From assembly GCA_018663035.1 (NCBI GenBank), contig JABJEX010000013.1, positions 4,409 to 68,408 of the forward strand: a stretch of DNA of 64,000 nucleotides, written 5' to 3'. The translations under genes were made by a program, and so were the position numbers. Source of the DNA: Porticoccaceae bacterium. Its GTDB lineage: Bacteria > Pseudomonadota > Gammaproteobacteria > Pseudomonadales > Porticoccaceae. The stretch's first letter is position 1; each line of letters opens with the position of its first letter. A model generated the notes under the pieces. The model saw only the letters and a program-made list of their open reading frames with translations, did not search any database and had not been told where the DNA came from. Positions 17,699 to 37,703 of the stretch are shown here, piece by piece.

Positions 17699-17785
17699 CC
17701 AAAAACAGTCGGGGCTAGATAGATTGTTTTGCTTACAACAGAGCAATTCACCTACAATCTGAGCCTGATTAAGGGAAATTATTTT

Positions 17786-18319
17786 ATGGCGCAAGACAAG
17801 GCTCGAAAATCTGCTACTCGCTCTCCTCAGCGAGGCCCCGCAACTGAAAAGTCTACCGCGCCCGCTTTTTTGTCTGGCTTAGTACTAGGCGCCCTGCTCA
17901 GCTATTTTATACCCATGCTATTCGACAGCCCATTGCCTGATAGCCAGAGCACCGCAGACAGCGTAGACGAGGTTAAATCACCAAGCCTAACCTTTACCTT
18001 TCATGATATTTTAAAGACTTCGGAGATTGTTATCGCTGAGGAAGAGCAGGTCGAAGATAGCAAGGCGGTACAGGGTGAAGACTACAATTATCTACTGCAA
18101 GTAGGATCCTTTAAAAACAAAGCTGATGCCGAGCGACTGCGTGTTCAGCTCCTACTGCTTAACCTGACGGTGAGCACAGAAACCCTGGGCGCCGAAAAGG
18201 GCGATGTCTGGCACCGCGTATTGGTCGGGCCCTTCGCCAATACCTCTAAAATGGCGTCGGCGAGGGCCAAGCTTGCTCAAAATGAGATAGACACCCTTCT
18301 AGTTAAGCGCAAACTCTAG
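17786..18319 (+). CDS. SPOR-domain cell-division protein (FtsN-like)
   Basis: Basic N-terminus, one TM helix, FTFHDIL and a C-terminal SPOR domain (YLLQVGSFKNKADAE...WHRVLVGPF). Start at MAQDK. Confidence 0.85.
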   Translation: MAQDKARKSATRSPQRGPATEKSTAPAFLSGLVLGALLSYFIPMLFDSPLPDSQSTADSVDEVKSPSLTFTFHDILKTSEIVIAEEEQVEDSKAVQGEDYNYLLQVGSFKNKADAERLRVQLLLLNLTVSTETLGAEKGDVWHRVLVGPFANTSKMASARAKLAQNEIDTLLVKRKL

Positions 18320-19662: not shown

Positions 19663-19782
19663 AGTGTTTTCCAATTTGCTTATCGGCAACAGTAGCGCAT
19701 GTTGCAGCACAAATACATTGACCCCTGTGCTAACTACCCCTTGGTGGTATCTAAAATTAGCTCAGACAAAGCATTGGGGGAC

Positions 19783-21756: not shown

Positions 21757-21788
21757 AACTATCGCCGTTAGAATTTTGTTTAGTCTAC

Positions 21789-21818
21789 AAAAAAAGAGCC
21801 GACATTGTCGGCTCTTTT
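21789..21818 (-). terminator. Intrinsic terminator between the TonB-dependent receptor and the sulfotransferase
   Basis: AAAAAAAGAGCCGAC-ATT-GTCGGCTCTTTT, with a T-run on the minus strand. Confidence 0.85.
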
Positions 21819-21840
21819 ATTTGGTTGTTGGTCTGGTCTC

Positions 21841-24186
21841 TTAGAACTTCCAGCCAACATCTACGCCTATACGACGAGGCTCAGAGAAACCAAAGTAATG
21901 GGCACCAATATTAGAATCTGATGGTGCAGCTCCCTTGTAGTGGAACTCATCGGTAATATTATTAACCCACAGCGTTAGGTTCCAGTCCTCAGCACTGTCA
22001 AAGCCGACTCGCAGATTACTGGTAGTGAAACCGTCAGTAATAATTGGGTCGTTGCTAAATGAGCCAAAGCCAATACCCTCGTCCTGATGGAAAGTCTCCC
22101 AGGAAATAGCCAGATCGCCATTTTCCATAGGCACCGTATAGGTCGCTACAATGGCTCCACTGAACTCTATAGTTCCTGGAATCTGAGCACCCTTACAGTC
22201 AGCTGGATCACAGAAGCCCGGATCTGGGTTTGTCAGATCGGTATCTGCCCATGACAGTCCCATGTAAATATCTAGGTTGTCAGTCGGCAAGATGCGTATA
22301 TCCAACTCAACGCCGCTGCCCTCTGCATCACCTATATTAGCCACGCTGTAGCGCGAGCCAACATAGTAGCCTGACTGCATATCAGTAAACTCGTAGCTGT
22401 AGAGACTACCATTAACCTGCAACTGACCATCCCAGAACTGACCCTTGAGTCCCAATTCAATATTGGTCACTTCTTCCTTCCTAAAGCTCTCTGGAGTGGC
22501 ACCCAAATCTAGAGCGTCCGCACCTTCCATATCCTCGTCGGTAACCGAGTCAGGGAAAGACAGGAAGAAGGTATTAAAACCGCCGGCTTTGTAGCCAGTG
22601 CTGTAGTTAATATAGGTCGATACATCTTCTGACACCTGATAAGAAACTGCAGCTCGGACAGATGTATTAGTCCACTGGTCACTGCCACGGACATAGTCAG
22701 AGGAGAAGAATGGGAATGAATAGAAGAAATAATTGCGGTCAGCGCCACCAAATTTCTGGCCGAAGTCACGATTATCCTCTGTGTAACGAGCACCAACACT
22801 GACGTCGATCTTGTCAGAAACACGGATAGTAGCATCGCCGTAAACACCCCAGCCATCATACTCAGCATCAATATCTACCGAGTCATTGCGCGTGCCTATA
22901 CCTGGACCATAGCTGGTATATCCGTTGTACTCGTAATAAGAAGCACAGTCGGTAACCTCTGACTCAAAATACGCAGCATCAAAGTCCTCGCCATAGGCTG
23001 CCGCATAAGAAGCTGCATAGTAAGTACCATAGGTGACACACATAGTGTCTTCATCATAGGTTTGATTGAAGCGCGTCTGAATCTCTTCTTGATACCAAGA
23101 AGCTCCGACAAACCAGCTGACGTCTTCGCTATCGCCATCGAGTCGGAATTCTTGACTGAAGTACTCCTGCTCCTGAATCTGCTGGTAGTTGAAGATAAAG
23201 CGGTCTTCACCATCAAAATCTTCGTTGTAGTAATAGTTGTGTCCACGCAGACCAGTAATGGATGTCAGACTGAGATCGCCGCCAAGGTCAACCTCTACAT
23301 TTAAGCTGGCTCCCCAGACTTCGCCCTCATCAATAAGGAGGTCTGTGTCTACATCTGAACTAAACTGCTTTTTGCCCGCGTCAGAACTAAAGAACGAAAA
23401 GCCTGTGTTGTCCGCATCAAACACCTTGTAAATAGTAGGAGGACCCATACGGTCTTCGTACTCTAGTACTAGCGTGCTGCTTACAGCATCATTTTCAAAC
23501 GAGATGCTGTGTCTAATTGCCCTATTTTCAATAGCGCCAGCAGTTTTGCCGTCGTTGATGTTAGTCATCCAGCCATCTTGCTGCTGATGATAAATCGCCG
23601 TGCGACTGGTGAGGTTATCACTCAGGGACATATTAAAGGCACCAGATAGCATACCGTAACCGTCCTGACCCATTCCCACTGTCAATGAAGCATCCTGATC
23701 CTGACTTGGTTTCTTGGTGGTTACAGCAATAGCACCAGCTGATGCGTTGCGACCAAACAGGGTACCCTGTGGCCCCTTGACGATTTCTACTGCCTCTATA
23801 TCAAAGAAACTTGAGAGAGCGCCACCGGTTCGACCCAGATAGATACCATCCTGATAGACGCCGATGGAAGGCTCTGCACCTACACCAAAATCATTGGTGC
23901 TGATGCCGCGCACATTCATAGAGTCCAAGAACGAGTCGTCTGTATCGCCAGATACGCCAGGCGTGAGCAGAGCCAATTCTTTAGCATCATTTATCTGGGC
24001 CTTCTCAATAAAAGATCCAGTAAAGGCTGATACCGAAATAGGCACATCCTGTAGTGATTCTGCACGCTTCTGCGTGGTGACAATCACCTCTTCAATCTGA
24101 GCTGCAGTCACCTGCGCTGCATTTATTGTGGCTGCTGCCACAGCTGCCGAAAGCAGCGTTTTACGTAATACGGTATTAGATTTCAT
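21841..24186 (-). CDS. TonB-dependent outer-membrane receptor
   Basis: Signal peptide, TonB box IEEVIVTTQKRAESLQDVPISVSAF, plug motif VEIVKGPQGTLFGRNASAG, and a C-terminal beta strand ending in F (PRRIGVDVGWKF). Start at MKSNTV. Confidence 0.95.
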   Translation of the reverse strand: MKSNTVLRKTLLSAAVAAATINAAQVTAAQIEEVIVTTQKRAESLQDVPISVSAFTGSFIEKAQINDAKELALLTPGVSGDTDDSFLDSMNVRGISTNDFGVGAEPSIGVYQDGIYLGRTGGALSSFFDIEAVEIVKGPQGTLFGRNASAGAIAVTTKKPSQDQDASLTVGMGQDGYGMLSGAFNMSLSDNLTSRTAIYHQQQDGWMTNINDGKTAGAIENRAIRHSISFENDAVSSTLVLEYEDRMGPPTIYKVFDADNTGFSFFSSDAGKKQFSSDVDTDLLIDEGEVWGASLNVEVDLGGDLSLTSITGLRGHNYYYNEDFDGEDRFIFNYQQIQEQEYFSQEFRLDGDSEDVSWFVGASWYQEEIQTRFNQTYDEDTMCVTYGTYYAASYAAAYGEDFDAAYFESEVTDCASYYEYNGYTSYGPGIGTRNDSVDIDAEYDGWGVYGDATIRVSDKIDVSVGARYTEDNRDFGQKFGGADRNYFFYSFPFFSSDYVRGSDQWTNTSVRAAVSYQVSEDVSTYINYSTGYKAGGFNTFFLSFPDSVTDEDMEGADALDLGATPESFRKEEVTNIELGLKGQFWDGQLQVNGSLYSYEFTDMQSGYYVGSRYSVANIGDAEGSGVELDIRILPTDNLDIYMGLSWADTDLTNPDPGFCDPADCKGAQIPGTIEFSGAIVATYTVPMENGDLAISWETFHQDEGIGFGSFSNDPIITDGFTTSNLRVGFDSAEDWNLTLWVNNITDEFHYKGAAPSDSNIGAHYFGFSEPRRIGVDVGWKF

Positions 24187-24299
24187 AATTCTCCCCAATT
24201 AGTCTGAGTTGATTGGCGTCATTGCTAAGATCTTGACCACTAATACTTTTAGACTGCAGTTGCCAATATCAGAATTCTATCCCTAAACAAACAATTTAC

Positions 24300-25109
24300 C
24301 TATCCCTGGTCAAACAATTTCCCCTGCCCTTTTAAGGCTTTTTTTCGCATCTGCTGTCCGAACTCACTAAACAGCAGCTTGGAAATCTGGTTGTTTTCAT
24401 ATTGCCACTCTGGATGCCACTGCACCCCAACGGCCCAACAGCCACTTTCAGGCTTCAGCATAACCGCTTCAATCAAGCCATCCTCTGCATGGGCTAGGGC
24501 TTCTAAGCCATCAGCTAATCGATTTATGCCCTGACTATGCAGACTGTTAACCTGACAACTAGTGTCGCCACTGGCGCTGTGCAGCCAACCACCAGAAACA
24601 AAGTTTACTGAATGGGACGGGCCATACTGTCCATCGCGATCTTTGCTCTTGTCCTCTCGGTGGTCATGGTAAGGGCTCACCTCATGAACCTTGGCATGCA
24701 ATGAACCGCCTAGGGCCACATTGAGCTCCTGAAAGCCCCTACAGACTGCAAAAATAGGCACCCCATGATCGATACAGCAGCGGATCAACTGCAAACTCAA
24801 GCTATCGCGCTGAGGATCCTCTAAGGTACCATCTGCATGGGCGGGGCCAGCGTAATGTCGGGGCTGAATATTCGATGGGCTGCCCGGCAAGAATAGCCCA
24901 TCAATGCGACTGACAATATCCTCAACCTGATACAGAGCACCTAGGTCGTTGATATCTTTCCCGTCGCCAAAGGTAGGCAACAGCATCGGCAGCGCCTGAG
25001 CACCGTTAGCAGCTGCATTAATATATTTCTCACCGACCCCATGCACAGGATGCATCCCCGAGGTCATTACGTCACAGGCTATACCCACCACAGGCAGAGT
25101 TTTGCTCAT
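24300..25109 (-). CDS. Gamma-glutamyl-gamma-aminobutyrate hydrolase family (PuuD/SpuA, peptidase C26)
   Basis: GLFLPGSPSNI, AVCRGFQELNVALGG (nucleophile Cys), VNSLHSQG and VQWHPE. Start at MSKTLPVVGI. Confidence 0.9.
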   Translation of the reverse strand: MSKTLPVVGIACDVMTSGMHPVHGVGEKYINAAANGAQALPMLLPTFGDGKDINDLGALYQVEDIVSRIDGLFLPGSPSNIQPRHYAGPAHADGTLEDPQRDSLSLQLIRCCIDHGVPIFAVCRGFQELNVALGGSLHAKVHEVSPYHDHREDKSKDRDGQYGPSHSVNFVSGGWLHSASGDTSCQVNSLHSQGINRLADGLEALAHAEDGLIEAVMLKPESGCWAVGVQWHPEWQYENNQISKLLFSEFGQQMRKKALKGQGKLFDQG

Positions 25110-25291
25110 CGATAAATCCTTCACTTTTACTCGCCATTTATAGGTTGAAATTTGCCAACCCATTTGGGTACATGACGCCTGACCATTTGTATGTTGAGAT
25201 ATTCATTCAACCTAGCCGCTATAAAAATACCCTTTTGGGGTGGCTCATCATTGCAGCACTGGCGCTAGTCAGACGACTTCTTGAGATAATT

Positions 25292-26665
25292 ATGACCAAA
25301 ATGCGAACAACAGAACAGTGGCAACAGCTGGATACCCAGCGACATCTGCACCCCTTTACGGACTTTAATGACTATGCACGTAAACCTGGCAGAATCATCA
25401 ACCGCGCCGAGCATATTTATATCCATGATACCGACGGCAACGTTTTGCTCGACGCCATGTCAGGGCTTTGGTGTTGCAGTCTGGGCTATAGCCAGCCGAC
25501 TATTGCTGAAGCTGTAAGCCGTCAATTTTCTGAACTGCCCTACTACAATAATTTCTTCCAATGCAGTAACGCACCAGCCGTAGAACTGGCGAATCGCTTA
25601 GTAAACATTACGCCAGAGCAGTTTACCCATGTGTTTTTCACCAGCTCTGGTTCCGAAGCAAACGATACTAACATTCGTATCGTACGACGGTATTGGGATC
25701 TCAAAGAGCAGCCTAAAAAACGAATTATCCTATCGCGCACCAATGGTTATCACGGCAGTACTATTGCGTCCGCCAGTCTTGGCGGCTTTGAATTTGTTCA
25801 CAAGCAGTTCGAGACGCTACCCTATGTTGAGCATATTGCCGATCCCAACTGGTATTGCAACGGTGGCGAGCTAAGCCCCCATGAATTTGGTATTCAGGCA
25901 GCGCGCGAATTAGAGAAGCGCATCGACAAATTGGGCGCCGAAAATGTCGCTGCGTTTATAGCCGAACCTGTGCAGGGTGCAGGCGGTGTTATCGTGCCAC
26001 CAGACAGTTATTGGCCAGAAGTTAGCCGCATTCTTAAAGAGCGGGATATTCTGTTTATCAGCGACGAGGTTATCTGTGGCTTTGGTCGAACTGGAAACCT
26101 GTTTGGCTGCCAGACCTATGGCACTGAGCCGGATCTTATTACCTTTGCCAAGGCAGTAACTAATGGCTTTCAGCCTCTGGGTGGTGTAATGGTCAGCGAT
26201 AAAGTTGCGCAGGTAATCACCAGCAGCGGCGGCGAGTTTGGTCATGGCTTTACCTACTCGGGCCACCCTATCGCCTGTTCAGCCGCTCTGGCGACCCTCG
26301 ATATTATTGAAGATCAGAATATGGTGTCTCATGTTGCCGATAATGTCGGCCCTTACTTACAAAATAAGTGGGCAGCGCTAGCAGAGCACCCTATAGTCGG
26401 TCATGTGCGCGGCGTAGGCATGCTGGGCTCTATCGAGTTGGTGCGTAACAAAGAGACCCGTGAGCGACTGGAGCCAGAGCAAAAATCCGGCGGCATCTGT
26501 AGAGAATTTTGTATTGCTAATGGCCTAGTAATGCGTGCTGTGGGCGACTCAATGATTATTTCACCGCCCTTTGTTAGCAGCCATGAAGAAATTGATCTAT
26601 TAATCGAACGTGCCACTAAGGCGCTGGATGCCACTGCGCATCATTACCAAGTAAAAGGTTCTTAA
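25292..26665 (+). CDS. Class III aminotransferase (SpuC-like polyamine:pyruvate transaminase)
   Basis: [48 protein letters not shown] and FAKAVTNG motifs. Start at MTKMRTT. Confidence 0.9.
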
Positions 26666-26666
26666 T

Positions 26667-27848
26667 ATGGCGGGTGATTGGGGAAAGTTTAACTGGCAAG
26701 ACGCATTTAATCTCGATGATCAGCTGACTGATGAGGAGCGTATGGTGCGAGACACCGCCGCCATCTATGCTCAGGAAAAACTAGCACCCAGAGTACGTGA
26801 TGCTTTTCGTCAAGAACACACAGACCGAGAAATCTTTAACGAAATGGGTGAACTAGGGTTACTGGGTGCCACTATTGATGGCTATGGCTGCCCTGGTGTT
26901 AGCTATGTAAGCTACGGTCTAGTCGCCCGAGAAGTCGAACGCGTCGATTCTGGCTATCGCTCGATGATGAGTGTGCAATCTAGCCTAGTTATGTACCCCA
27001 TCTATACCTATGGCACTGAACAGCAAAAAGAAAAATACCTGCCCAAGTTGGCCACCGGTGAATGGGTGGGCTGCTTTGGTCTGACCGAACCAGACGCTGG
27101 TTCTGATCCGGGCGGGATGAAAACTCGAGCGAGAACTGTAGATGGCGGCTATCTGCTGTCAGGCAGCAAAATGTGGATCAGTAACTCACCGATTGCCGAT
27201 GTATTTGTGGTCTGGGCGAAAACTGATGACGGTATTATTCGAGGCTTTATTCTCGACAAAGGTATGAAAGGTCTTACCGCACCTAAAATAGAAGGCAAGC
27301 TAGCACTGCGCGCTTCGATTACCGGTGAGATTGTTATGGACGAGGTATTTGTTCCTGAAGAGCAACTGATGTCCAATGTACAGGGCTTAAAAGGGCCCTT
27401 TGGCTGCCTTAATTCTGCACGCTATGGCATAAGCTGGGGTGTTATGGGGGCCGCTGAAAACTGCTGGCATGCAGCGCGACAATACTGTCTGGACCGCACG
27501 CAGTTTAACCGACCTCTGGCGGCTACCCAGTTGATTCAAATGAAATTGGCTAATATGCAAACAGAGATCAGCCTGGGGCTACAGGGTTCGTTGCGTGCTG
27601 GACGGTTGAAAGATCAAGGCCAGCTAGCGCCTGAACTGATCTCTCTAATGAAGCGCAACAACTGTACTAAGGCTCTGGATATTGCTCGTATGGCAAGAGA
27701 CATGCATGGTGGCAACGGAATTTCTGATGAATACCCAATTATGCGCCATATGATGAACCTAGAGGTGGTTAACACCTACGAGGGTACAGCTGATGTTCAT
27801 GCCCTGATTCTAGGGCGTGCCCAAACAGGCATTCCGGCCTTCGGATAA
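26667..27848 (+). CDS. gcdH: Glutaryl-CoA dehydrogenase
   Basis: [40 protein letters not shown] and [20 protein letters not shown] are characteristic of GcdH. Confidence 0.93.
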
Positions 27849-27852
27849 TTCT

Positions 27853-29073
27853 ATGGCAGGACCTCTGGCTGGCTATAAAGTTTTGGATATGAGCCGCGTG
27901 CTCGCTGGCCCCTGGGCTGGGCAGATGCTCGCGGATCTCGGAGCTGAGGTAATCAAGATTGAACGGCCATCAGTGGGCGACGACACTCGCCACTGGGGAC
28001 CTCCCTACCTGCAAAACAGCGACGGCACCAGCACCCAAGACGCGGCTTATTTTTTTTGCACCAATCGCGGTAAAAAATCGGTCACTGTAGATATTACACA
28101 ACCAGAAGGCCAAGCAATTATCCGTCAGCTCGCCAGTCAGTCTGATGTGCTGATCGAAAACTATAAGGTGGGTGGCCTTGCAAAGTACGGTCTCGACTAC
28201 GACTCTCTGCAAGCCTTAAACCCACAGCTGATCTACTGCTCAATCACTGGCTTTGGCCAAACCGGCCCCTATGCTCAACGTCCGGGTTATGATTTTTTAA
28301 TTCAGGGCATGGGCGGCTTAATGAGCATCACCGGCGAGCCCGATGAGCAGCAAGGCGGCCCAGTAAAGGTCGGAGTAGCTGTCACAGATATTTTTACCGG
28401 TCTTTACGCCGCCAATGCAATTCAGGGCGCCCTGCTCGAACGGCACCAATCTGGACTGGGACAGCACATAGATCTGGCATTACTGGATGTGCAGGCTGCC
28501 GTATTAGCCAATCAGGCCAGCAACTACCTCATTGGTGGTCAGGTGCCAGAGCGTCTGGGTAATGCCCACCCAAACATTGTGCCCTATCAAGCATTCGCTA
28601 CTGCAGATGGCCATATTATTTTGGCGGTGGGTAATGACAGCCAGTTTGAGCGTCTCAGTCAGGTGCTACAGCAGCCACAGTGGGCTCTTGATCCAAGCTA
28701 TCAAACCAATGCCGCCAGAGTGAAAAACCGACAGCAACTATGCGCCAGTATCAGCCAGCAACTCAGTGCAGGAAACAGCAGTGATTGGCTCAGATTATTC
28801 ACCGAGCACCAGATTCCCTGCGGCCCGATTAATAGAATTGATGAAGTATTCGAAGACCCACAAATCTTAGCTCGTGACATGCTGGTCAAGGTGGCGGATA
28901 AACGCGCCGGTGAAATTAAACTGGTGGGCAATCCAATAAACTATAGTCGCTCACAAATAGACTATGCAGTGCCACCTCCGGAACTTGGAGATGACACTGC
29001 ATCAGTACTAGGGGAGACTCTTGAATTTTCGCAAGCGGAGCTAGACGCCCTGCGCAAAAAATCTATTATTTAG
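27853..29073 (+). CDS. CaiB/BaiF (family III) CoA-transferase, probably succinyl-CoA:glutarate CoA-transferase
   Basis: DMSRVLAGPW, GDDTRHWGPP, NRGKKS, PGYD and GVAVTDIFTG motifs; directly follows gcdH. Confidence 0.85.
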   Translation: MAGPLAGYKVLDMSRVLAGPWAGQMLADLGAEVIKIERPSVGDDTRHWGPPYLQNSDGTSTQDAAYFFCTNRGKKSVTVDITQPEGQAIIRQLASQSDVLIENYKVGGLAKYGLDYDSLQALNPQLIYCSITGFGQTGPYAQRPGYDFLIQGMGGLMSITGEPDEQQGGPVKVGVAVTDIFTGLYAANAIQGALLERHQSGLGQHIDLALLDVQAAVLANQASNYLIGGQVPERLGNAHPNIVPYQAFATADGHIILAVGNDSQFERLSQVLQQPQWALDPSYQTNAARVKNRQQLCASISQQLSAGNSSDWLRLFTEHQIPCGPINRIDEVFEDPQILARDMLVKVADKRAGEIKLVGNPINYSRSQIDYAVPPPELGDDTASVLGETLEFSQAELDALRKKSII

Positions 29074-29076
29074 TCG

Positions 29077-30891
29077 CTAGTTTTGTGACGCAATCCAACT
29101 GGCCACTGACTCTTCCAAAATGGCCAGTGGCATAGCGCCATTCATCAAAATCATTTCGTGAAACTCGCGGCTATCAAAGCGCTCACCCAGTGCTTTTTCA
29201 GCTTGGGTACGCAGCGCCAATATGGCTTGTTGACCGACTTTGTAGGAGGTCGCCTGACCGGGCCAAACCACATAGCGCTCAATTTCGCGAGTAACTTCTG
29301 CCTCAGTGAGACCAGTTTTCTCAAGCATGTAAGCGATCGCTTTCTCGCGACTCCAACGCTTGGCGTGGATGCCAGAATCTACGACTAAACGCACAGCCCG
29401 AAAAATCTCGTCCTGCAAGCGACCCAGATTCCCCAGAGGGTCATTGTCATAAACTCCCATGTCGGTAAAAGCGATGCGCTCTGCGTAAAGCGCCCAACCC
29501 TCGGTATAGGCATTGAAAGGGCTCATCATGCGAAGGAACGGCACATCCTCGATCATCTGCCCCGCAGAAATCTGGAAATGATGTCCTGGAGCACCCTCGT
29601 GATACATAAAGGTCCGCAGTTTCCAGCGGGGATTATCCCAGGTATCTTTTTGATTGATGTAGAAGCGCCCTGGGGTAGATCCATCTAGAGCTGGCGGCTG
29701 GTAGTACCCGCCTGGAGAGGAATCCTGCGCATAGACAGGCACCCTGACTATCTCCAGAGGCTGCGGCGGTATGGTTATAAAGTGCTGATCCGCCATAGCC
29801 ATCAACTGATCATTGACCTGGTTTAGGTAGGCTATCTGCTCAGCCCGACCTTCCTCTGTGTTGGCGAAGTTATGTTCAGGCATCACCATCAGCTGCTGAA
29901 CTCGAGACAGAATACTGCCTTCCGTCATCCCCAAGCTCATCAGAATATCGTTCATTTCCAACTGAATTCGTGCCACCTCGGCTAAACCTAGTTGATGAAC
30001 GTCATCTGCCGACATATTGGTGGTGGTATTTGATCTCAGAGCATTGTTGTAAATAGCTTCACCCTGAGGCAGACGCCATACACCAGCATCATGACTGCTG
30101 GTCAATAGCATCTCTTCAAATAGCGCGATCATGTTGTGGTACTGAGGAATAATCTGGGAGCTTACAGCCTCCTGCGCTTCCTTGGTGAGCGCCACCTTAG
30201 TAGCCTCAGCGATGTTGTCCAACGGATCCAACCTGCTGGCTAATGTAGCCACTAGAGGGTTTTCCTCTACTGGGCCATCAGAGAAAGCACGCATGCCAAC
30301 CAGTACTTTTTCAATAATAAAATCAGGGGGCACGGTCCCCTGATCACGATCATCCATTACCCGCACCCGCACCTCGGAAATGACCCGGGCGAACTCATTC
30401 AGGCGTGAAATGTAACGACGCAAACTTTTCTCGTCGACGATCCTATGTCTATCTGTGAGGAACTGAGGCAAATCCACCATCACGCCAGAGATTTGATTAA
30501 CTCGATATCCACCATGCTCAAACTCGGCGCTGCGAATTAAATCGTCAAAAAACCAGGCAGTAATCTTCCAACTGAGGAGCTCTTGACCCTCTAATCCCTC
30601 TGGGCCATAACTATCGAGACCGCGACGACCCTCAAGCAAAATAGTCAGTGACTTTTTATCGGCCTCCTCTGTATAGGACTCTAATTTGTCACTGTGGAAG
30701 TCTAGGGGCGTGTTATCAATAAGTCCGATAGAGCTGATCATTTCAGGAGACTGCATCACCAGCTGGAGGCTTATTTTGTTGATATAGTTATTGACGCCCA
30801 CAGGCATAGCCCAGAACCACAGATAGAGCGAAAACACTGCAATGACGACGACTGAGATCAGTAGCCCGAGAATTTTTTTAACAGCAGACAT
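29077..30891 (-). CDS. DUF885-family protein (putative metallopeptidase-like)
   Basis: N-terminal TM anchor, YHEGAPGHHFQ, EGWALYAE, RAVRLVVDSGIH and WPGQATSYKVG motifs. Confidence 0.88.
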   Translation of the reverse strand: MSAVKKILGLLISVVVIAVFSLYLWFWAMPVGVNNYINKISLQLVMQSPEMISSIGLIDNTPLDFHSDKLESYTEEADKKSLTILLEGRRGLDSYGPEGLEGQELLSWKITAWFFDDLIRSAEFEHGGYRVNQISGVMVDLPQFLTDRHRIVDEKSLRRYISRLNEFARVISEVRVRVMDDRDQGTVPPDFIIEKVLVGMRAFSDGPVEENPLVATLASRLDPLDNIAEATKVALTKEAQEAVSSQIIPQYHNMIALFEEMLLTSSHDAGVWRLPQGEAIYNNALRSNTTTNMSADDVHQLGLAEVARIQLEMNDILMSLGMTEGSILSRVQQLMVMPEHNFANTEEGRAEQIAYLNQVNDQLMAMADQHFITIPPQPLEIVRVPVYAQDSSPGGYYQPPALDGSTPGRFYINQKDTWDNPRWKLRTFMYHEGAPGHHFQISAGQMIEDVPFLRMMSPFNAYTEGWALYAERIAFTDMGVYDNDPLGNLGRLQDEIFRAVRLVVDSGIHAKRWSREKAIAYMLEKTGLTEAEVTREIERYVVWPGQATSYKVGQQAILALRTQAEKALGERFDSREFHEMILMNGAMPLAILEESVASWIASQN

Positions 30892-31007
30892 GTTTGAACC
30901 TTTTTCATTGAATTAATGCGCCGGTCATTAGCCGGCATTAGTTGCCCTGATTTAGACGAATCAGGGCTCTAATTTGGATTCAACTCAGTATTACCTAAAC
31001 GTCACCA

Positions 31008-32183
31008 CTAGTCGATAAGCCGCATCACTGGCGGAGGAAAGCCATTGAAATCGCAGGCACAGGTGGTGCAATAGGCACCCAGATTGGGCATATAGATAAA
31101 ATCTTCCGCCTCGGTGTTAGCTGGGAGTTTATGTCGGCCCATTACGTCGATAGAGTCACAGGTTGGGCCAGCCATGGTCCACAGTCCCGGCTCCCCAGTG
31201 CGCTCGCTTATAAGAGTCACTGGAAAATCTTGGGTTAACTCCATCAATCCACCGTAAACACCAGTATCCAGATAGACCCAACGCACCTCATCGCGAGTCG
31301 CCACGCCTACTACCTGTGCAATGAGACAGCCTGCTGAACCAGCAAAGTATCTTCCCGGCTCTGCCATTATCTGAATATTTTCCGGAATCGATTCAAGCTC
31401 AGCATTGATCACGGCGCCAATCTCTTCAATAGCCGGCTCAGCTCCAGTAAATTGCAATGGATAACCACCACCCATATTGAGCAGTTCAGGCTCAAAGCCA
31501 TGGCTGGATAATTTAGTAAACAGTGCCTTGGCCGCTCGAATACCCTCAACCCAATTATTGGTGTTCACGCATTGCGAACCCACATGGAAGGTCACGCCAC
31601 AGATTCGCATACCGAGATTTTTTGCCGTTTCTATAACAGCATCAACGCCAGACGGACTAGCACCAAACTTACCTGCCAACGGCCAGCTGGAGCCTTCGTT
31701 GCTAACTTCGATACGAATATACAACTTGGCATCTGGCTTGATTGCAGATATTTTTGCCACCTCTTCTGGCGTGTCAACGCTGTACCAAAGGATGCCGTTC
31801 TTTGCAGCATGGGCAACGGCAGCGGGCGATTTAATCGGGTTGGAGTAAAATACTGTCTGCATATCGGCGCCCAGCTTCAGCATCGCATCTACCTCGGCGA
31901 TAGAGGCCACCTCAAAACAGGTACCCTCTTCTTTGAAGGTGCGCAGAATATCCATATCAGGGTTGGCCTTCACCGCATAATGAGGGCGTACTCTTGGCAT
32001 AGCCGCCATAAAACGACGCGCGTTTTCTCGCAGACGCTGCTTTGACACGACCAACACAGGCCGGCTGTAGTCTTTAGTGAAAGGCGCAGTAAAAGAAATT
32101 TGCTGACGACTGTCTTCTTCTACCATTAATCTACGCTGATTTTGGTTATTATTTTCCAGCTTAACTGCTGCAGCAACGCTCAT
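31008..32183 (-). CDS. Fold-type III PLP-dependent basic amino-acid decarboxylase (ornithine/lysine decarboxylase family)
   Basis: HYAVKAN (PLP Lys), KFG, TFHVGSQ, MGGGYP, AEPGRY and GPTCDSID motifs. Confidence 0.9.
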   Translation of the reverse strand: MSVAAAVKLENNNQNQRRLMVEEDSRQQISFTAPFTKDYSRPVLVVSKQRLRENARRFMAAMPRVRPHYAVKANPDMDILRTFKEEGTCFEVASIAEVDAMLKLGADMQTVFYSNPIKSPAAVAHAAKNGILWYSVDTPEEVAKISAIKPDAKLYIRIEVSNEGSSWPLAGKFGASPSGVDAVIETAKNLGMRICGVTFHVGSQCVNTNNWVEGIRAAKALFTKLSSHGFEPELLNMGGGYPLQFTGAEPAIEEIGAVINAELESIPENIQIMAEPGRYFAGSAGCLIAQVVGVATRDEVRWVYLDTGVYGGLMELTQDFPVTLISERTGEPGLWTMAGPTCDSIDVMGRHKLPANTEAEDFIYMPNLGAYCTTCACDFNGFPPPVMRLID

Positions 32184-32255
32184 TACACACCTATAAGAAG
32201 AGAGGTTTAAAACAGCATTTTATTAATATAAACTGTCATTTTGTATTTGCAAACC

Positions 32256-32290
32256 TTTCAATTTGTTTACTATTAATAAGCAAATTGAAA
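32256..32290. promoter_or_regulatory. AT-rich inverted repeat in the decarboxylase/Lrp divergent promoter (candidate operator)
   Basis: TTTCAATTTGTTTA...TAAGCAAATTGAAA: 14-bp arms with one mismatch. Confidence 0.5.
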
Positions 32291-32309
32291 TATTAAATGG
32301 CATATTGAA

Positions 32310-32732
32310 ATGAAAAATGAAAGTCGCCTTCTCAAGCTTCTCCAAGAAAATAGCCGCAGAACCGTATCTGATCTCGCCAGCGAACTAGGGCTTAGCCGTG
32401 CCACAGTGCAGCAGACAATGGAGAGGTTGGAGCGCAAAGGCGTAATCCAGGGCTATACCATTAAGATTAACCCGCATTTTGAGCAGCAGCAGGTTAGCGC
32501 CTACATCATGATCTCAGTGATTCCTAAAAAGACTGCAGATATTGTTCGCCAGATTCACAGGGTGCCGCAACTGGATATGCTATGCACAATCAGTGGCCAG
32601 TACGACCTTATTGCCAAGGTAACTGAGGAAACCACAGAGGCGCTGGATAAAAGCATTGATCGAATCGCTACCCTTGATGGAGTAGAAAAAACACTGAGTC
32701 ATATTGTGTTGTCAAGAAAGGTAGATAGATAG
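32310..32732 (+). CDS. Lrp/AsnC-family transcriptional regulator
   Basis: N-terminal HTH (LQENSRRTVSDLASELGLSRATV...GVIQGYT) and a C-terminal RAM domain (ISGQYDLIAKV). Confidence 0.93.
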   Translation: MKNESRLLKLLQENSRRTVSDLASELGLSRATVQQTMERLERKGVIQGYTIKINPHFEQQQVSAYIMISVIPKKTADIVRQIHRVPQLDMLCTISGQYDLIAKVTEETTEALDKSIDRIATLDGVEKTLSHIVLSRKVDR

Positions 32733-32788
32733 TCGGTAGACTGGTAACTTAGCGACTCAAAAAAATAACGACAAAATCATCATTCCCT

Positions 32789-34252
32789 ATGAGCAAAATA
32801 ATCACTAAACCCAGCTTACTCGACGCCCTGATTCCTGTTATCGTTCTAATCAGCATGCTGGCAGGCACTGTCTATGTGTTTGGTCTAGACTCCTTTGGCC
32901 CCAATCAGGTTGCACTCATCATGGCAGCGGCAGTAGCTGCCATGATTGGGATTAAAAATGGCATCAGCTGGCATGAGATTGAGCAGGGCATGATTCACAC
33001 AATTAGCCTCTCACTACAATCAATTCTGATTCTATTAATGGTTGGCTCATTAATCGGCAGCTGGATTCTGTCTGGCACTGTACCCAGCATGATTTACTAT
33101 GGGGTGGAGTTGATGTCGCCGGACTACTTTTATCTCACCGCCTGCCTGGTTTGCGCCCTGCTAGGCTTTAGCATTGGTAGTTCTTGGACAGTGGCAGGAA
33201 CCCTAGGTATTGGCCTGATGGGCATCGCTGCGGCACTTAATCTTTCGCTGGCGATCAGTGCTGGCGCTATCATCTCCGGCGCCTACTTTGGCGACAAGCT
33301 GTCACCACTCTCAGAAACCACCAATCTGGCAGCGGCAGTAACCAGCAACAATCTGTTTGACCATATTCAGCACATGCTTTGGACTACTATCCCAGGCTTT
33401 TTGATTACCCTGGTTCTATTTTTTCTTTTGGGGGTAGGTAGCGGGTCCAACCTAGTAATTGATGATATTGAGATACTCCAAAATGCAATGCAGCAAACCT
33501 TCACCATTAATCCGCTGATGCTGCTGCCACTGATACTTTTACTGACCATGGCGGTCAAGAAGCTACCGGCCCTATCAACATTGATCTGCGGAACAGTCGC
33601 AGGCTGTGTGTTTGCGGCGGCGTTTCAAACCGATGTAGTTATTGCTCTGGCGGATGATAATAGCCTCAGCTCCACTGCAGCTATTTTTAAGGGCCTGTTT
33701 AGCTCGATGTTTTTGGGCTACAGCTCTGTGACCGGCAACGAAGCCCTTGATACCCTGCTGTCCAAAGGCGGCATGAGTAATATGCTGACTACCGTTGGTC
33801 TGGTCATAAATGCGATGGCCTTCGGTGGCGCGATGCGACGCACAGGTCTGCTGCAGCGGCTGGTAGAGGCTGCATTGAGCCGAGTTAGATCAGCAGGCGA
33901 TATGATTGTCGCCACTGTAGGGACCTGTATAGGCACGAATATTTTGGCTGCCGACCAATATCTCAGCCTGGTAATTCCTGGGCAGATGTTTGTAAAACCC
34001 TATGAAGAGCGCGGGCTCAGCACCATCAACCTATCGCGTACACTTGAGGACTCTGGCACCCTAACCTCGGCGCTAGTGCCCTGGAATACCTGTGGTGCCT
34101 ATATGTCAGCAACCCTAGGGGTCAGCACGTTTATCTATGCCCCCTATGCTTTCTTTAATATCCTCTGCCCAATCATTGCCATTATCTATGGTTATTCGCA
34201 AATTGGATTGACTACAATTGATAAAGAACCCTCAGGGCAGGCCCGGTCTTAG
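32789..34252 (+). CDS. NhaC-family antiporter (possible amino-acid/amine transporter)
   Basis: About 12 TM helices; GSSWTVAGTLG, GAYFGDKLSPLSETTNLA and SRTLEDSGT..LVPWNTCG motifs. Confidence 0.88.
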   Translation: MSKIITKPSLLDALIPVIVLISMLAGTVYVFGLDSFGPNQVALIMAAAVAAMIGIKNGISWHEIEQGMIHTISLSLQSILILLMVGSLIGSWILSGTVPSMIYYGVELMSPDYFYLTACLVCALLGFSIGSSWTVAGTLGIGLMGIAAALNLSLAISAGAIISGAYFGDKLSPLSETTNLAAAVTSNNLFDHIQHMLWTTIPGFLITLVLFFLLGVGSGSNLVIDDIEILQNAMQQTFTINPLMLLPLILLLTMAVKKLPALSTLICGTVAGCVFAAAFQTDVVIALADDNSLSSTAAIFKGLFSSMFLGYSSVTGNEALDTLLSKGGMSNMLTTVGLVINAMAFGGAMRRTGLLQRLVEAALSRVRSAGDMIVATVGTCIGTNILAADQYLSLVIPGQMFVKPYEERGLSTINLSRTLEDSGTLTSALVPWNTCGAYMSATLGVSTFIYAPYAFFNILCPIIAIIYGYSQIGLTTIDKEPSGQARS

Positions 34253-34298: not shown

Positions 34299-35198
34299 AT
34301 GACCATCAGCCAGTGCAGCATAATTTTTCTAGCGGCCTGTTTATCGGCTGGCTCGGCCTCATCTGGACCATTATTATTTGACGGTGAACTGGCAATACAA
34401 CATATAGCTAGGCAGATAGCATTCGGGCCCAGAGAGCCTCGCAATCAACTAGCAAAGAAAAATACCCTTAGCTATTTACAGCAAACTCTGGCCCCTCTGG
34501 CCGATGATATTAGCATCCAACATTTTCAAGCCTACCAACTAGAAGGTACTAATTTATGGGCCAGCTTCCAAGGCCCTACCCACGGCGATAAGCCCAGCGA
34601 ACGGATTATGCTCGCAGCCCACTGGGATACTCGCCCCTGGGCGGACCAAGACTCTGATCCAGCACTGCGACGCAGTGCGGTTATTGGCGCGAATGACGGC
34701 GGCTCTGGCGTCGCCCTGTTACTAGAGATGGCTCGTATTCTGGCATATAGACCAGCCCCAGTTACTGTTGATCTGGTATTTTTTGACCTTGAAGATATGG
34801 GAGGCATAGGTAATCGCCCTTTCTCGATTGGTGCACAACAATTTATTGCTGCCAATCCTAAGTATCGTCCCAGCGCAGGGGTTGTGGTTGATATGGTCTG
34901 CGATAAAAACCTCAGCATTCCCAGAGAGCAATATTCCGATACTAGAGCGGGCGCGCTGATGGATAAACTGTGGGCGATTGCTAAGACACAACAGGCTCGG
35001 GCCTTTAAAGACCGACGCGGTGGATTTATCAGCGACGACCACCTACCCTTTTTGGAGGCTGGAATTCCAGTCGTTGATTTGATTCACTATCCATTTCCTG
35101 ATTACTGGCACACTACAGAAGACACCCTAGACAAATGCAGTGCCCGTAGCTTGCAGCAGGTTGGCAATCTTCTGACTGACTTTATCTACACTTACTAG
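34299..35198 (+). CDS. M28-family metalloenzyme, glutaminyl-cyclase-like, secreted
   Basis: Signal peptide; AHWDTRP, GANDGGSG, FDLEDMG, DMV, SDDHLPF and YWHT motifs. Confidence 0.8.
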   Translation: MTISQCSIIFLAACLSAGSASSGPLLFDGELAIQHIARQIAFGPREPRNQLAKKNTLSYLQQTLAPLADDISIQHFQAYQLEGTNLWASFQGPTHGDKPSERIMLAAHWDTRPWADQDSDPALRRSAVIGANDGGSGVALLLEMARILAYRPAPVTVDLVFFDLEDMGGIGNRPFSIGAQQFIAANPKYRPSAGVVVDMVCDKNLSIPREQYSDTRAGALMDKLWAIAKTQQARAFKDRRGGFISDDHLPFLEAGIPVVDLIHYPFPDYWHTTEDTLDKCSARSLQQVGNLLTDFIYTY

Positions 35199-35253: not shown

Positions 35254-36591
35254 ATGACAAAAAATAAACTAGTTCGTCTCATTAGCCTGTCTGCTATCGG
35301 CAGCCTTTTCGCCCTCAGTGTCAGCGCAGACAATCTGATGCAGTCCATCGAGGACGACTACAGCAATCGACTAGGCGATATCTTTGCCGACTTCCATGCT
35401 AATCCAGAGCTCAGCACAGGCGAGTTTCGCACGGCCAAAATACTGGCTAGCCTGCTGCGAGAATCAGGCTTTGAGGTCACAGAAGGCGTCGGTGGTACTG
35501 GGATTGTGGCACTAATGGAAAATGGCCCTGGACCATTAGTAATGATGCGCGCTGATATGGATGGACTTCCCCTAGAAGAAAAATCCGGCTTGCCCTATGC
35601 CTCAAAGGTGACCCAGTTGGATCCGGTGACTGGGAAGGTGTTTCCAGTGATGCATGCCTGTGGCCACGACGTTCATATCACCAGCTTAGTAGGAACTGCC
35701 AAACAGATGGCCGAGCGGCGAGATAGCTGGTCTGGCAGGTTGATGCTAATTGGCCAGCCTGCCGAAGAGCGAGTATTGGGTGCCAAGATCATGATGCAGG
35801 ACAATCTCTGGAAGCGTTTTGGAAAGCCTGACTATGCTTTGGCGTTCCACGTCGCAGCGGGGCTGCCTGCGGGAAATATTAATGTGCAAGAAGGTGCGCC
35901 CATGGCAGGTGCGGATACTGTAGATATTATTGTCCACGGCATCGGTGCTCACGGCGCGTCTCCCCATGCAGGTAAAGATCCAGTCCTTCTCGGCAGTCAG
36001 ATTGTAGTAGGACTACAGGCACTGGTGGCACGAGAACTCCCGCCAAGAGAAGCCGGCGTGGTCACTGTGGGGGCATTCCATAGCGGCACCAAGCACAATA
36101 TTATTTCCGATCGTGCAGAACTTCAGCTGACAGTGCGCAACACCAACCTTAAGACAAGGGATAAGTTACTCAGTGGCATAGAACGCATTGCGACCAACAT
36201 GGGGCGTGTTGCTGGATTGCCCGAGGATAAGCTGCCCGAGGTTATTGTTCTCGACGAATCAACCCCTCCCACCATTAATAATGATCCACTGGTGCGCCGC
36301 CTAAAGGCAGTGTGGCAGAACGCCATGGGAGAGGATCGGGTAACCGGTTATTCATCTCAGGGGATGGGCGCAGAAGACTTTCCATTTTTCACGACAGAAC
36401 CGGCAATACCAAGCGTTTACTTCTCTGTAGGTGGCACCCATATCTCGGACATAGAAGCCGCTGCTGATGGCACTGGGCCCGCAGTACACTCCCATCACAG
36501 CCCATTATTTAAGATTGAACCGCAGCCGTCGGTGACTACAGGCATTCAGGCCACCGTGCTTGCGCTGATGGATTTGATGCCAGTGAACTAA
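35254..36591 (+). CDS. M20D amidohydrolase (hippurate hydrolase-like) with signal peptide
   Basis: HANPELS, RADMDGLP, MHACGHDVH, QPAEE, FHV, MGAEDF and HHSP motifs. Confidence 0.9.
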   Translation: MTKNKLVRLISLSAIGSLFALSVSADNLMQSIEDDYSNRLGDIFADFHANPELSTGEFRTAKILASLLRESGFEVTEGVGGTGIVALMENGPGPLVMMRADMDGLPLEEKSGLPYASKVTQLDPVTGKVFPVMHACGHDVHITSLVGTAKQMAERRDSWSGRLMLIGQPAEERVLGAKIMMQDNLWKRFGKPDYALAFHVAAGLPAGNINVQEGAPMAGADTVDIIVHGIGAHGASPHAGKDPVLLGSQIVVGLQALVARELPPREAGVVTVGAFHSGTKHNIISDRAELQLTVRNTNLKTRDKLLSGIERIATNMGRVAGLPEDKLPEVIVLDESTPPTINNDPLVRRLKAVWQNAMGEDRVTGYSSQGMGAEDFPFFTTEPAIPSVYFSVGGTHISDIEAAADGTGPAVHSHHSPLFKIEPQPSVTTGIQATVLALMDLMPVN

Positions 36592-37703
36592 AGCACTGCT
36601 TTTAAGGCGTTAAGGCAGAAGTCGACATTTTTTTGGTTGCTGGCGTGTCCCATTAATCCGATGCGCCAGACCTTGCCTGCAAGGGCGCCTAGGCCTGCGC
36701 CGATCTCAAGGTCGAACTCGTTAAGCAAGCGAGTTCGCACCTCAGCATCATCGGCACCCGAAGGTATAAAGACGCTATTGAGCTGCGGCAGACGATGAGC
36801 TTCTTTAACCAAAAAGCCTATACCCAACTGCTGTAAACCCTTATGCAGCGCCAAATGGTTCTGCTGATGCCTAGCCCAAGAATTTTCCAGCCCTTCCTCT
36901 TGAACAATTACCAGTGACTCATGCAATCCGTAGAGACAGTTGACCGGAGCAGTGTGATGATAAGCACGTTTGCCTTCGCCACCCCAGTAGCCCATAACAA
37001 GGTTGAGATCGAGAAACCAACTCTGCACCTTGCTCTGGCGACCTTGAATCTTTTCTGCGGCACGCTGATTAAAGCTGACGGGCGACAACCCGGGGGGCGC
37101 CGAGAGACACTTCTGAGAACCTGAGTAGATCGCATCTATGCCCCATTCATCTACCAACAGGGGGGTACCTACTAAACTAGTCACAGCATCGACGATAGTA
37201 AGGCAACCATATTGATGAGCCAACGCCACCAAAGTTTTGGCATCGGACTGAGCGCCAGTGGAGGTCTCCGCATGCACAAAGGCAACCAGTACAGCATCTG
37301 GATGAGCTTTTAATGCCGCCTCAAGTTTCTCCGGGTCAACCGCATCGCCCCAGTTATCCTCAACCATCACTGCAGTGCCACCACAGCGCTCTACATTTTC
37401 TTTCATGCGCCCGCCAAACACGCCATTTTGGCAAACAATAACCTTGTCACCGCACTCGACTAAATTGGCAAAGCAACATTCCATACCAGCTGACCCAGGG
37501 GCAGATACCGCGAAGGTCAGCTCATTTTGGGTCTGAAAAACATATTGCAGCAGAGTTTTGACCTCATTCATCATACCGATAAATGCGGGATCCAAGTGAC
37601 CTAGTGTAGGTCTCGCCATAGCCTGTAAAACACGGTCGCTCACATCTGAAGGGCCAGGGCCCATGAGGGTACGGCGCGGAGGTAGAAAACTGCTTATGCT
37701 CAT
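36588..37703 (-). CDS. Alanine-glyoxylate / serine-pyruvate aminotransferase (class V)
   Basis: LMGPGPS, HAETSTG, VDAVTS, YSGSQKCLSAPPG, YHHT and WRIGLMG motifs. Confidence 0.92.
   Translation of the reverse strand: MSISSFLPPRRTLMGPGPSDVSDRVLQAMARPTLGHLDPAFIGMMNEVKTLLQYVFQTQNELTFAVSAPGSAGMECCFANLVECGDKVIVCQNGVFGGRMKENVERCGGTAVMVEDNWGDAVDPEKLEAALKAHPDAVLVAFVHAETSTGAQSDAKTLVALAHQYGCLTIVDAVTSLVGTPLLVDEWGIDAIYSGSQKCLSAPPGLSPVSFNQRAAEKIQGRQSKVQSWFLDLNLVMGYWGGEGKRAYHHTAPVNCLYGLHESLVIVQEEGLENSWARHQQNHLALHKGLQQLGIGFLVKEAHRLPQLNSVFIPSGADDAEVRTRLLNEFDLEIGAGLGALAGKVWRIGLMGHASNQKNVDFCLNALKAVL

Follow-up and report, generated by a model that had tools for sequence, protein, structure and literature searches.

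Which diamine is made, and which is degraded, at a locus where a basic amino acid decarboxylase lies close to genes for the activation of glutarate and the oxidation of glutaryl-CoA? This question is raised by a 64,000-nt stretch of DNA (C13:4409-68408 of contig JABJEX010000013.1; hereafter the window) from a Porticoccaceae bacterium, whose complete genome comprises 2.02 Mb in 104 contigs. SAR92-like Porticoccaceae are abundant among coastal bacterioplankton, for which polyamines and basic amino acids are significant dissolved sources of nitrogen and carbon. Close homologues of the window proteins carry Porticoccaceae names.

Gene order was established by open reading frame calling and family searches (Pfam and NCBIfam), and two modules were distinguished: (i) a puuA-like and a puuD-like gene with an operon for a SpuC-like omega-amine:pyruvate aminotransferase (AT), glutaryl-CoA dehydrogenase (GcdH) and a glutarate CoA-transferase (CoAT), and (ii) a fold III (alanine racemase fold, AR-fold) pyridoxal phosphate (PLP) decarboxylase divergent from an Lrp gene, which is followed by genes for an NhaC-family transporter and secreted M28 and M20 proteins. 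With about even confidence, we take the region to be an island for the catabolism of diamines (polyamines) in a streamlined genome, in which the two modules are kept close together and the decarboxylase is of the ornithine decarboxylase (ODC) type; the data support a diamine-metabolism island where the producer of a diamine is maintained beside its consumers. The first module would degrade a C5 amine. The second, with Lrp as its regulator, would make a diamine from a basic amino acid that is either imported or derived from peptides. Such a cluster is a fairly ordinary polyamine catabolism island, with a decarboxylase belonging to a known family of bacterial AR-fold ODCs. Its significance would lie in streamlined genomes that lost the SpeA-NspC polyamine route and keep one ornithine-type decarboxylase with its own Lrp, parked beside a cadaverine/5-aminovalerate-to-glutaryl-CoA operon. 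The analysis determined the identities of the genes, their spacing within the operon, the conservation of their order, the clades to which their products belong and their phyletic patterns; the substrates of the encoded enzymes are inferred.

The aminotransferase-gcdH-CoA-transferase unit and its proposed pathway

The genes for the AT, GcdH and the family III CoA-transferase form a tight unit with gaps of 1 and 4 bp, as a first-pass annotation of the window had described. Read directly from the sequence, the AT gene starts with an ATG at position 25292 and its stop codon ends at 26665, 1 bp before gcdH, and the ATG of the CoA-transferase gene (27853) follows gcdH after a 4-bp gap (ttct). With 686 bits, the AT clears the NCBIfam PRK07480 cut-off of 510, and its scores against the solved SpuC/putrescine/polyamine transaminases 6hx9, 6gwi and 9j4z are about 548-567 bits (552 bits for Pseudomonas putida SpuC, 6hx9, and 548 bits for the polyamine:pyruvate transaminase 9j4z). 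By this similarity it is a member of the SpuC-type subfamily, and is predicted to act on putrescine, cadaverine or 5-aminovalerate.

The dehydrogenase is, judged by overall similarity, an unambiguous decarboxylating GcdH, and is predicted on this basis to have the catalytic Glu base and the Arg for binding of the gamma-carboxylate. The N, M and C acyl-CoA dehydrogenase domains of Pfam were all found, and the protein matches Burkholderia GcdH (3gnc/3eom) with 642 bits (E = 4e-192) and human GCDH with 574 bits (E = 1e-171), compared with at most 254 bits against acyl-CoA dehydrogenases other than GcdH and 184 bits against the non-decarboxylating Desulfococcus enzyme. Its gene is present in a single copy, the next acyl-CoA dehydrogenase of the genome being 31% identical. 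The CoA-transferase matches Pfam CoA_transf_3 (435 bits) and human SUGCT (9br6; 365 bits), and by far its best NCBIfam family is the succinate--glutarate model NF052585, although the 540 bits reached fall short of the equivalog cut-off (750). The order gcdH-CoA-transferase is kept in related genomes and contigs (G015, G043, L050 and L051).

Since an omega-aminotransferase shares an operon with a glutarate-activating enzyme and GcdH, a C5 amine (cadaverine or 5-aminovalerate) rather than putrescine is the expected substrate. That the three-gene unit handles a C5 substrate is well supported by this argument from established pathway knowledge, and the C5 diamine logic put forward in the first-pass annotation holds: the arrangement puuD-AT-gcdH recurs in four genera, and genes for the steps not covered by the window are present on other contigs of the genome.

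These steps were sought by tblastn of Escherichia coli K-12 reference proteins against the whole genome, and the matches were then classified with NCBIfam. The puuA-like product shares 38% identity with E. coli PuuA across 452 aa, and its 221 bits against NCBIfam GGputSyn are below the cut-off of 650. The puuD-like product (Pfam Peptidase_C26, 215 bits) is 40% identical to E. coli PuuD and likewise stays below the cut-off of its NCBIfam equivalog (181 bits against 266); the real start of the gene may be an internal Met codon at about 25109. No aldehyde dehydrogenase or PuuB is encoded on the contig of the window, in line with the earlier remark that these enzymes lie outside it, and candidates sit on C58, C66, C75, C85 and other contigs. 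The search for puuB, puuC and davT/davD-type steps, which had been suggested together with that remark, yielded (i) a PuuB-like oxidase on C58 (42% identity to E. coli PuuB), adjoining a second puuA-like gene; (ii) a PuuC-like aldehyde dehydrogenase on C66 (42% identity to E. coli PuuC); and (iii) a GabD/succinate semialdehyde dehydrogenase (SSADH) on C75 (62% identity, TIGR01780 above cut-off), adjoining a PRK06105-type omega-aminotransferase. In addition, C85 encodes an AptA aminotransferase and a PuuR-like regulator, and C18 an agmatinase (C18:43106-44063).

The whole-genome search found no GlaH/LhgD, and none of SpeA, the fold I decarboxylases (SpeC and CadA), SpeD, SpeE and NspC. No PotF, PotH or PotI was found in the genome by tblastn, and its sole PuuP/CadB-like match is an APC protein on C7 with 23-24% identity. 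The genome is rich in genes for polyamine catabolism, but has hardly any for biosynthesis and none for an importer that could be recognised. From the predicted functions, a complete route from cadaverine to crotonyl-CoA can be assembled on paper, whereas a polyamine importer of known type cannot.

In the scheme that we favour, cadaverine and/or 5-aminovalerate would be deaminated by transamination, partly through gamma-glutamyl intermediates; the aldehydes would be oxidised by dehydrogenases supplied from elsewhere in the genome (the PuuC-like enzyme of C66 and the GabD/SSADH of C75); and glutarate would be activated by the CoA-transferase, the resulting glutaryl-CoA being converted by GcdH to crotonyl-CoA. 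The same SpuC/Puu enzymes could also convert putrescine to gamma-aminobutyrate (GABA), which would go on to succinate via the GabD and aminotransferase of C75.

Family and active site of the decarboxylase

The decarboxylase contains the Pfam domains Orn_Arg_deC_N and Orn_DAP_Arg_deC. It is the only basic amino acid decarboxylase detected by the whole-genome search, one other fold III gene, on C14, being lysA-like. Its best matches among solved structures are the lysine/ornithine decarboxylases (L/ODCs) of Vibrio vulnificus (2plj; 209 bits) and Selenomonas ruminantium (5gjm; 185 bits), which rank first because, to our knowledge, no structure of a bacterial-type ODC has been solved.

A tree was constructed from an alignment of 102 decarboxylase homologues, including three reference sequences recovered from HMMER alignments; the characterised Nitrosomonas europaea protein is represented in it by genus-level proxies. 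The window enzyme belongs to a monophyletic, Lrp-linked gammaproteobacterial clade (gamma clade; Shimodaira-Hasegawa-like approximate likelihood ratio test, SH-aLRT, 96) with members in Porticoccaceae, Halieaceae, Cellvibrionaceae and the families f38, f40 and f41. We know of no previous description of this Lrp-linked subclade of the AR-fold ODC family. Together with a Nitrosomonas/Nitrosospira/Burkholderiales clade (beta clade) and Chitinimonas it forms a three-way polytomy (SH-aLRT of the group, 99), and the window enzyme is 45-51% identical to the Nitrosomonas/Nitrosospira homologues. The three-way group is nested in a large bacterial ODC group, alongside Rhizobiales, Thermotoga and Aquifex sequences. 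Outside this group lie the L/ODCs of V. vulnificus and S. ruminantium, mouse ODC and an Omnitrophota/Planctomycetota group; the window enzyme is separated from the two L/ODCs by starred branches and so is not a member of their clade. The enzymes of N. europaea, Thermotoga maritima and Bartonella henselae, which fall in the bacterial group, are listed as characterised L-ODCs in a figure legend (PMC7857480, Fig. 10), and the same paper describes the role of the specificity helix and of an Asp (D314 of V. vulnificus L/ODC) to which the distal amine binds.

In the multiple alignment, the specificity helix of the L/ODC and eukaryotic group follows the pattern G-x-F-x-x-x-x-[FY]-D. The helix of the window enzyme is YGGLMELTQDF, and the conserved Asp is missing from it, as across the bacterial ODC group. 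The column of D314 (D332 in eukaryotic ODC) is occupied by Q, D, E, N or T in the clade and is thus unconserved, and an invariant Glu stands four residues earlier; the motif GG-x-x-E runs through the entire bacterial ODC clade, the window enzyme included. A 3-residue deletion or loss of register in the helix, indicated by HMMER pairwise alignments, was rejected as a gap artefact on the basis of multiple alignments. Of the 45 columns scored at and next to the active site, 44 agree between the gamma and beta clades, either exactly or conservatively. The sole difference is Tyr versus Phe at mouse position 323, and both clades share the catalytic residues K69, E94, R154, H197, E274, R277, C360, D361, Y389 and F397 (mouse numbering). 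In the window enzyme the PLP-binding Lys is K72, within AVKANP, and the E, R, H, S, GGG, E, G-R, C-D, Y and F-N elements were all found. At the positions matching S. ruminantium 44 and 46 it carries Val and Pro, like mouse ODC; we take these positions to be specificity determinants, as is reportedly set out by Takatsuka et al. in 2000.

By descent and active site, the decarboxylase is most likely of the bacterial AR-fold L-ODC type, with a predicted preference for ornithine and a possible side activity toward lysine. Its descent and active-site make-up being those of an L-ornithine decarboxylase, its main product would most likely be putrescine, and the enzyme would be the only route of this genome to any polyamine. 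The phyletic pattern presented below points in the same direction.

The first-pass annotation had proposed that this 'ornithine decarboxylase' may be a catabolic lysine decarboxylase (LDC). A lysine or dual Lys/Orn enzyme would convert lysine, imported by the NhaC-family protein or released by the M28 and M20 proteins, to cadaverine and hence to glutaryl-CoA. We hold this to be rather unlikely, and the proposal of a catabolic lysine decarboxylase is not supported at the level of the protein itself: the enzyme lies outside the L/ODC clade, the distal-amine Asp is unconserved, the active-site columns agree with those of the Nitrosomonas-type ODC clade, and the equivalents of S. ruminantium positions 44 and 46 are ODC-like. 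The Pro at the position of Pro54 of S. ruminantium LDC, shared by the window enzyme, speaks in its favour. A lysine riboswitch, which would fit lysine as substrate, was not found: no Rfam family gave a match at E <= 1 within positions 17000-40000.

A broader form of this idea, that the Lrp-linked gamma clade as such has shifted to lysine or dual Lys/Orn specificity and provides the entry enzyme of a route from lysine through cadaverine and glutarate to glutaryl-CoA in marine Porticoccaceae, Halieaceae and Cellvibrionaceae, is in our view unlikely. If true, lysine decarboxylase activity would have arisen anew and independently among the bacterial ODCs, and an otherwise biosynthetic fold would have taken on a catabolic role.

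We consider it very unlikely that the decarboxylase acts on some other substrate, for example arginine, 2,4-diaminobutyrate or a basic amino acid with an N-modification that the M20 protein sets free. The replacement of the canonical helix Asp, with the invariant Glu four residues earlier, could be read in this way, but the Glu motif spans the whole bacterial ODC clade, including the listed characterised L-ODCs. The M20 protein bears a distant similarity to the N-acetyl-diaminobutyrate deacetylase DoeB2, with a score of 185 bits where the cut-off is 550, and the genome has an agmatinase without an arginine decarboxylase; however, the M20 and M28 proteins are secreted and the decarboxylase is cytoplasmic.

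A V. vulnificus-type L/ODC orthologue was identified in another Porticoccaceae genus (L024; G027:C44:1077-2138). It pairs with 2plj (SH-aLRT 99) and is just 30% identical to the window decarboxylase. Since this enzyme groups with 2plj and the window enzyme does not, the two decarboxylase types are distinct within Porticoccaceae.

Distribution and linkage of the two modules

The comparison set consisted of 61 Porticoccaceae genomes and extra contigs. The arrangement puuD-AT-gcdH, often accompanied by the CoA-transferase gene and puuA, is present in genera g1, g19 and g9 and in one g7 genome (G024). In all of these puuD lies beside the AT gene, and a puuA-like gene lies beside puuD or the AT gene in G043, G024 and the f40 genomes. 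Genus g9 carries puuD-AT-gcdH but lacks the decarboxylase altogether, and the C5 unit thus does not depend on this enzyme. In two g9 loci (L025 and L027, from G026 and G008) a gene for an aldehyde dehydrogenase with about 32% identity to E. coli GabD lies convergent just past puuD-AT-gcdH, and its product may be the missing aminoaldehyde or semialdehyde dehydrogenase of the C5 route. The gcdH gene alone is found near priA-SPOR in many decarboxylase-less genera, and this vicinity is likely its ancestral place. In one of the decarboxylase-less genomes, G031, a divergent LysR gene stands beside gcdH. An NhaC homologue near gcdH of G031 was considered as a link between the transporter and C5 metabolism, and was set aside as unclear: unannotated genes intervene, and it is the GcdR-like LysR gene that lies beside gcdH.

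The decarboxylase was found in 5/5 genomes of g1, 4/4 of g19 and 1/5 of g7. SpeA is encoded in one of the ten decarboxylase-positive Porticoccaceae and in 37 of the 51 decarboxylase-negative ones (Fisher p = 4e-4, not corrected for phylogeny), as well as in none of seven decarboxylase-positive genomes of other families; the distribution of NspC tracks that of SpeA. This pattern also tells against the catabolic lysine decarboxylase of the first-pass annotation, as does the lack of a significant correlation with gcdH: co-occurrence of the two genes is not significant in this sample, gcdH being present in 30 of the 51 decarboxylase-negative genomes as well (p = 0.29).

Complementarity to SpeA is what would be expected of a housekeeping, biosynthetic ODC that replaced the lost SpeA-NspC, the nearness of gcdH being inherited priA synteny and Lrp, NhaC and the peptidases being unrelated. 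The sister clade occurs in autotrophic Nitrosomonas, where the role can be biosynthetic only, and the ancestral site of gcdH at priA-SPOR in many decarboxylase-less genera agrees with such a history. Even so, we judge this explanation quite unlikely. The decarboxylase-Lrp pair is strictly conserved, as is Lrp-NhaC-M28-M20 in g1 and g19; the linkage with AT, puuA and gcdH holds away from priA (G019, G024 and f40); there is no spermidine pathway in the genome to consume the product; and a biosynthetic decarboxylase is dispensable in Porticoccaceae, since 14 genomes have neither SpeA nor the decarboxylase.

Among the 18 genomes or contigs with sufficient flanking DNA, 10 have the decarboxylase gene no more than about 15 kb from gcdH, whereas roughly 1% would be expected by chance. 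At least four arrangements are involved: (i) in the g1 type, the DUF885 gene stands between the decarboxylase and the gcdH unit; (ii) in L050, the decarboxylase gene directly adjoins the CoAT-gcdH-AT operon at its 3' end; (iii) in the g19 type, 5-7 kb of other genes intervene; (iv) in G024, the decarboxylase gene is directly convergent with gcdH, with puuD and puuA following. The distance is about 6 kb in L051, 13 kb in G043 and 9-12 kb in f40 (G099 and G147), where AT and puuA genes adjoin Lrp. The proximity to AT and gcdH being far above chance, the decarboxylase is likely tied functionally to diamine catabolism. After Lrp, its most constant neighbours are not gcdH but omega-aminotransferases, SpuC-like or GabD-linked (G054, L052, G099, G147 and G350). 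In G054 and L052, a SpuC-like AT gene adjoins the decarboxylase without gcdH, and in G350 the decarboxylase gene stands beside GabD, an aminotransferase of the C75 type and an agmatinase-like gene, i.e., in a C4 (putrescine/GABA) context.

Several of these observations count against a diamine island with an ornithine-type enzyme. The recurrence of linkage with gcdH in different arrangements, with direct contact at the 3' end of the operon in G024 and L050, is most simply explained if the product of the decarboxylase is a C5 diamine, and gcdH is present in every complete decarboxylase-positive genome. No canonical polyamine importer was found in the genome (none of PotF/H/I, and a PuuP-like match of 23% only); with no known importer, the source of cadaverine or 5-aminovalerate for the first module is unexplained unless it is intracellular. 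Moreover, ODC and LDC specificities are not reliably readable from sequence, and the assignment of the gamma clade should be taken as a prediction of that kind.

Observations of this kind speak for lysine as the substrate. The linkage decarboxylase-AT-gcdH, with or without the CoA-transferase, recurs in g1, g19, G024 and f40 despite rearrangements; in g7 the sole decarboxylase-bearing genome is also the sole gcdH-bearing genome; this genome, G024, retains SpeA and NspC, so that the decarboxylase is unneeded there for biosynthesis; and, as no polyamine importer of known type is present, the diamine would more readily be made inside the cell. On the other hand, g9 maintains puuD-AT-gcdH without the decarboxylase, gcdH shows no significant association with it, and the decarboxylase of f38 stands beside GabD, an aminotransferase and an agmatinase-like gene, a C4 context. 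The diamine island with an ornithine-type decarboxylase remains the reading that we favour, and genomic context alone is no ground for naming such an enzyme a lysine decarboxylase.

Gene neighbourhood and comparison with known systems

The features of the region are listed in Table 1.

Table 1. Features of the two modules and flanking genes; positions are those of the window.
Feature	Position	Strand	Remark
priA	15470-17698	+	
SPOR protein	17729-18319	+	
puuA-like gamma-glutamyl-polyamine synthetase	18316-19710	-	glutamine synthetase family
TPR-sulfotransferase	19783-21756	-	
TonB-dependent receptor	21841-24198	-	
puuD-like gamma-glutamyl-amide hydrolase	24300-25163	-	Peptidase C26; divergent from AT
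SpuC-like omega-amine:pyruvate aminotransferase (AT)	25292-26665	+	class III; first gene of operon
Glutaryl-CoA dehydrogenase, gcdH	26667-27848	+	decarboxylating type
Family III CoA-transferase	27853-29073	+	glutarate (SUGCT/GcoT)-like
DUF885 protein	29077-30891	-	N-terminal membrane anchor; downstream of decarboxylase
Hairpin, candidate terminator	30944-30967		10-bp stem; between decarboxylase stop and DUF885 start; pattern scan
Fold III (AR-fold) PLP decarboxylase	31008-32183	-	bacterial L-ornithine decarboxylase type
Lrp/AsnC-family regulator	32310-32732	+	divergent from decarboxylase
NhaC-family transporter	32789-34252	+	
M28 peptidase	34299-35198	+	secreted
M20 amidohydrolase/carboxypeptidase	35254-36591	+	secreted
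Class V aminotransferase	36588-37703	-	
Second family III CoA-transferase	37721-38932	-	

The divergent arrangement of a fold III decarboxylase with Lrp and an NhaC-family transporter, noted in the first-pass annotation, was found at the positions given in Table 1. That annotation made no mention of the DUF885 gene between the two modules, of the upstream puuD-like and puuA-like genes or of the M28 and M20 genes behind NhaC. The Lrp protein has the Pfam domains HTH_24/AsnC_trans_reg, and its gene is separated from that of the decarboxylase by 126 bp. An Lrp gene is divergent from the decarboxylase in every gamma-clade member with enough flank (Porticoccaceae, Halieaceae, Cellvibrionaceae, f38, f40 and f41), and none was found beside the betaproteobacterial homologues examined. 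The NhaC-family protein scores 427 bits against TIGR00931 (cut-off 370), its second-best curated family being the NhaC-type Arg/Orn antiporter ArcD (NF052307; 375 bits, cut-off 650). In g1 and g19 its gene comes after Lrp, and in f41 the two are 2.3 kb apart.

The M28 protein (Pfam Peptidase_M28) has a signal or lipoprotein-like N-terminus and is kept after NhaC; the M20 protein (TIGR01891, 266 bits, above cut-off) has a signal peptide and is kept after M28, the chain Lrp-NhaC-M28-M20 being conserved in g1 and g19. N-terminus analysis places both of these proteins outside the cytoplasm, as secreted, and the decarboxylase within it. Secreted M28 and M20 proteins together with NhaC suggest a periplasmic release of amino acids coupled to uptake. 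The direction of transport, the ligand of Lrp and any activity of the decarboxylase toward lysine are likewise inferred.

The combination of modules resembles the lysine/cadaverine route of Pseudomonas, which comprises LdcA, the Pau/Spu enzymes (gamma-glutamylation and SpuC), DavT/DavD and GcoT-GcdH (gcdR-gcdH-gcoT operon). Common to both, at the level of enzyme families, are a SpuC-type AT, PuuA/PuuD-type and SSADH/GabD-type enzymes, and a family III CoA-transferase adjoining GcdH. In the window, however, the AT gene is inside the gcdH-CoA-transferase operon. Beside gcdH, Pseudomonas has a divergent LysR-type regulator; no GcdR-type LysR gene lies beside gcdH of the window, whereas G031 has a LysR gene at this place. 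The chemical logic is also shared, in that C5 amines end in glutaryl-CoA (compare the catabolism of cadaverine and putrescine in P. putida U, PMC10606097). The entry decarboxylase of Pseudomonas, LdcA, has the aspartate aminotransferase (AAT) fold (PMC6257575), and no AAT-fold decarboxylase was found in the genome of the window.

With the bacterial AR-fold L-ODCs of N. europaea, T. maritima and B. henselae, the window enzyme shares the clade, the GG-x-x-E helix and the catalytic residues. Unlike the beta-clade ODCs, which have neither, the gamma clade always occurs with a divergent Lrp and diamine-catabolic neighbours, and it has Tyr, not Phe, at position 323; it also differs from other bacterial ODCs in the replacement of the post-helix 'RY', by FP in Porticoccaceae. 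The L/ODCs of V. vulnificus and S. ruminantium have the same fold and catalytic residues, but belong to another clade and carry the F-D-[DH] specificity-helix Asp (D314 of V. vulnificus) that is missing from the window enzyme.

The degradative cassettes SpeF-PotE, CadA-CadB and AdiA-AdiC each combine a decarboxylase with an antiporter. As in these, a basic amino acid decarboxylase lies here beside a membrane transporter and a dedicated regulator. The transporter, however, is of the NhaC family and not APC, the decarboxylase is of fold III and not fold I, and the catabolic neighbours suggest that the amine is consumed rather than exported. The assignments made here offer testable annotations for genes designated 'aspartate aminotransferase family', 'CaiB/BaiF' and 'type III PLP-dependent enzyme'.

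The DUF885 protein (Pfam, 509 bits) has a hydrophobic N-terminus. Its gene is present in genus g1 only (G015, G043, G054, L049, L051 and L053) and is missing in g19 and G024; the hairpin falls within the 116-bp gap between the decarboxylase and DUF885 genes. The genes for the TPR-sulfotransferase and the TonB-dependent receptor (19783-24198) split puuA-like from puuD-like in the window, and likewise in G015, G054, L052 and L053; in G043 puuA and puuD are adjacent, without this insertion. On the other side, the class V aminotransferase (AGXT/BhcA-like) and the second CoA-transferase are syntenic beside the module in g1 and g19, and in G024 the second CoA-transferase gene directly adjoins Lrp. 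In f38, f40 and f41 the neighbours of the decarboxylase-Lrp pair are heterogeneous (GNAT, MFS, EamA, PhnA etc.), save for Lrp itself and for AT and puuA in f40. In one f38 locus (L039 of G225, 8292-8741), a GNAT acetyltransferase and an MFS transporter gene stand just past Lrp and could be a candidate diamine acetyltransferase/exporter pair.

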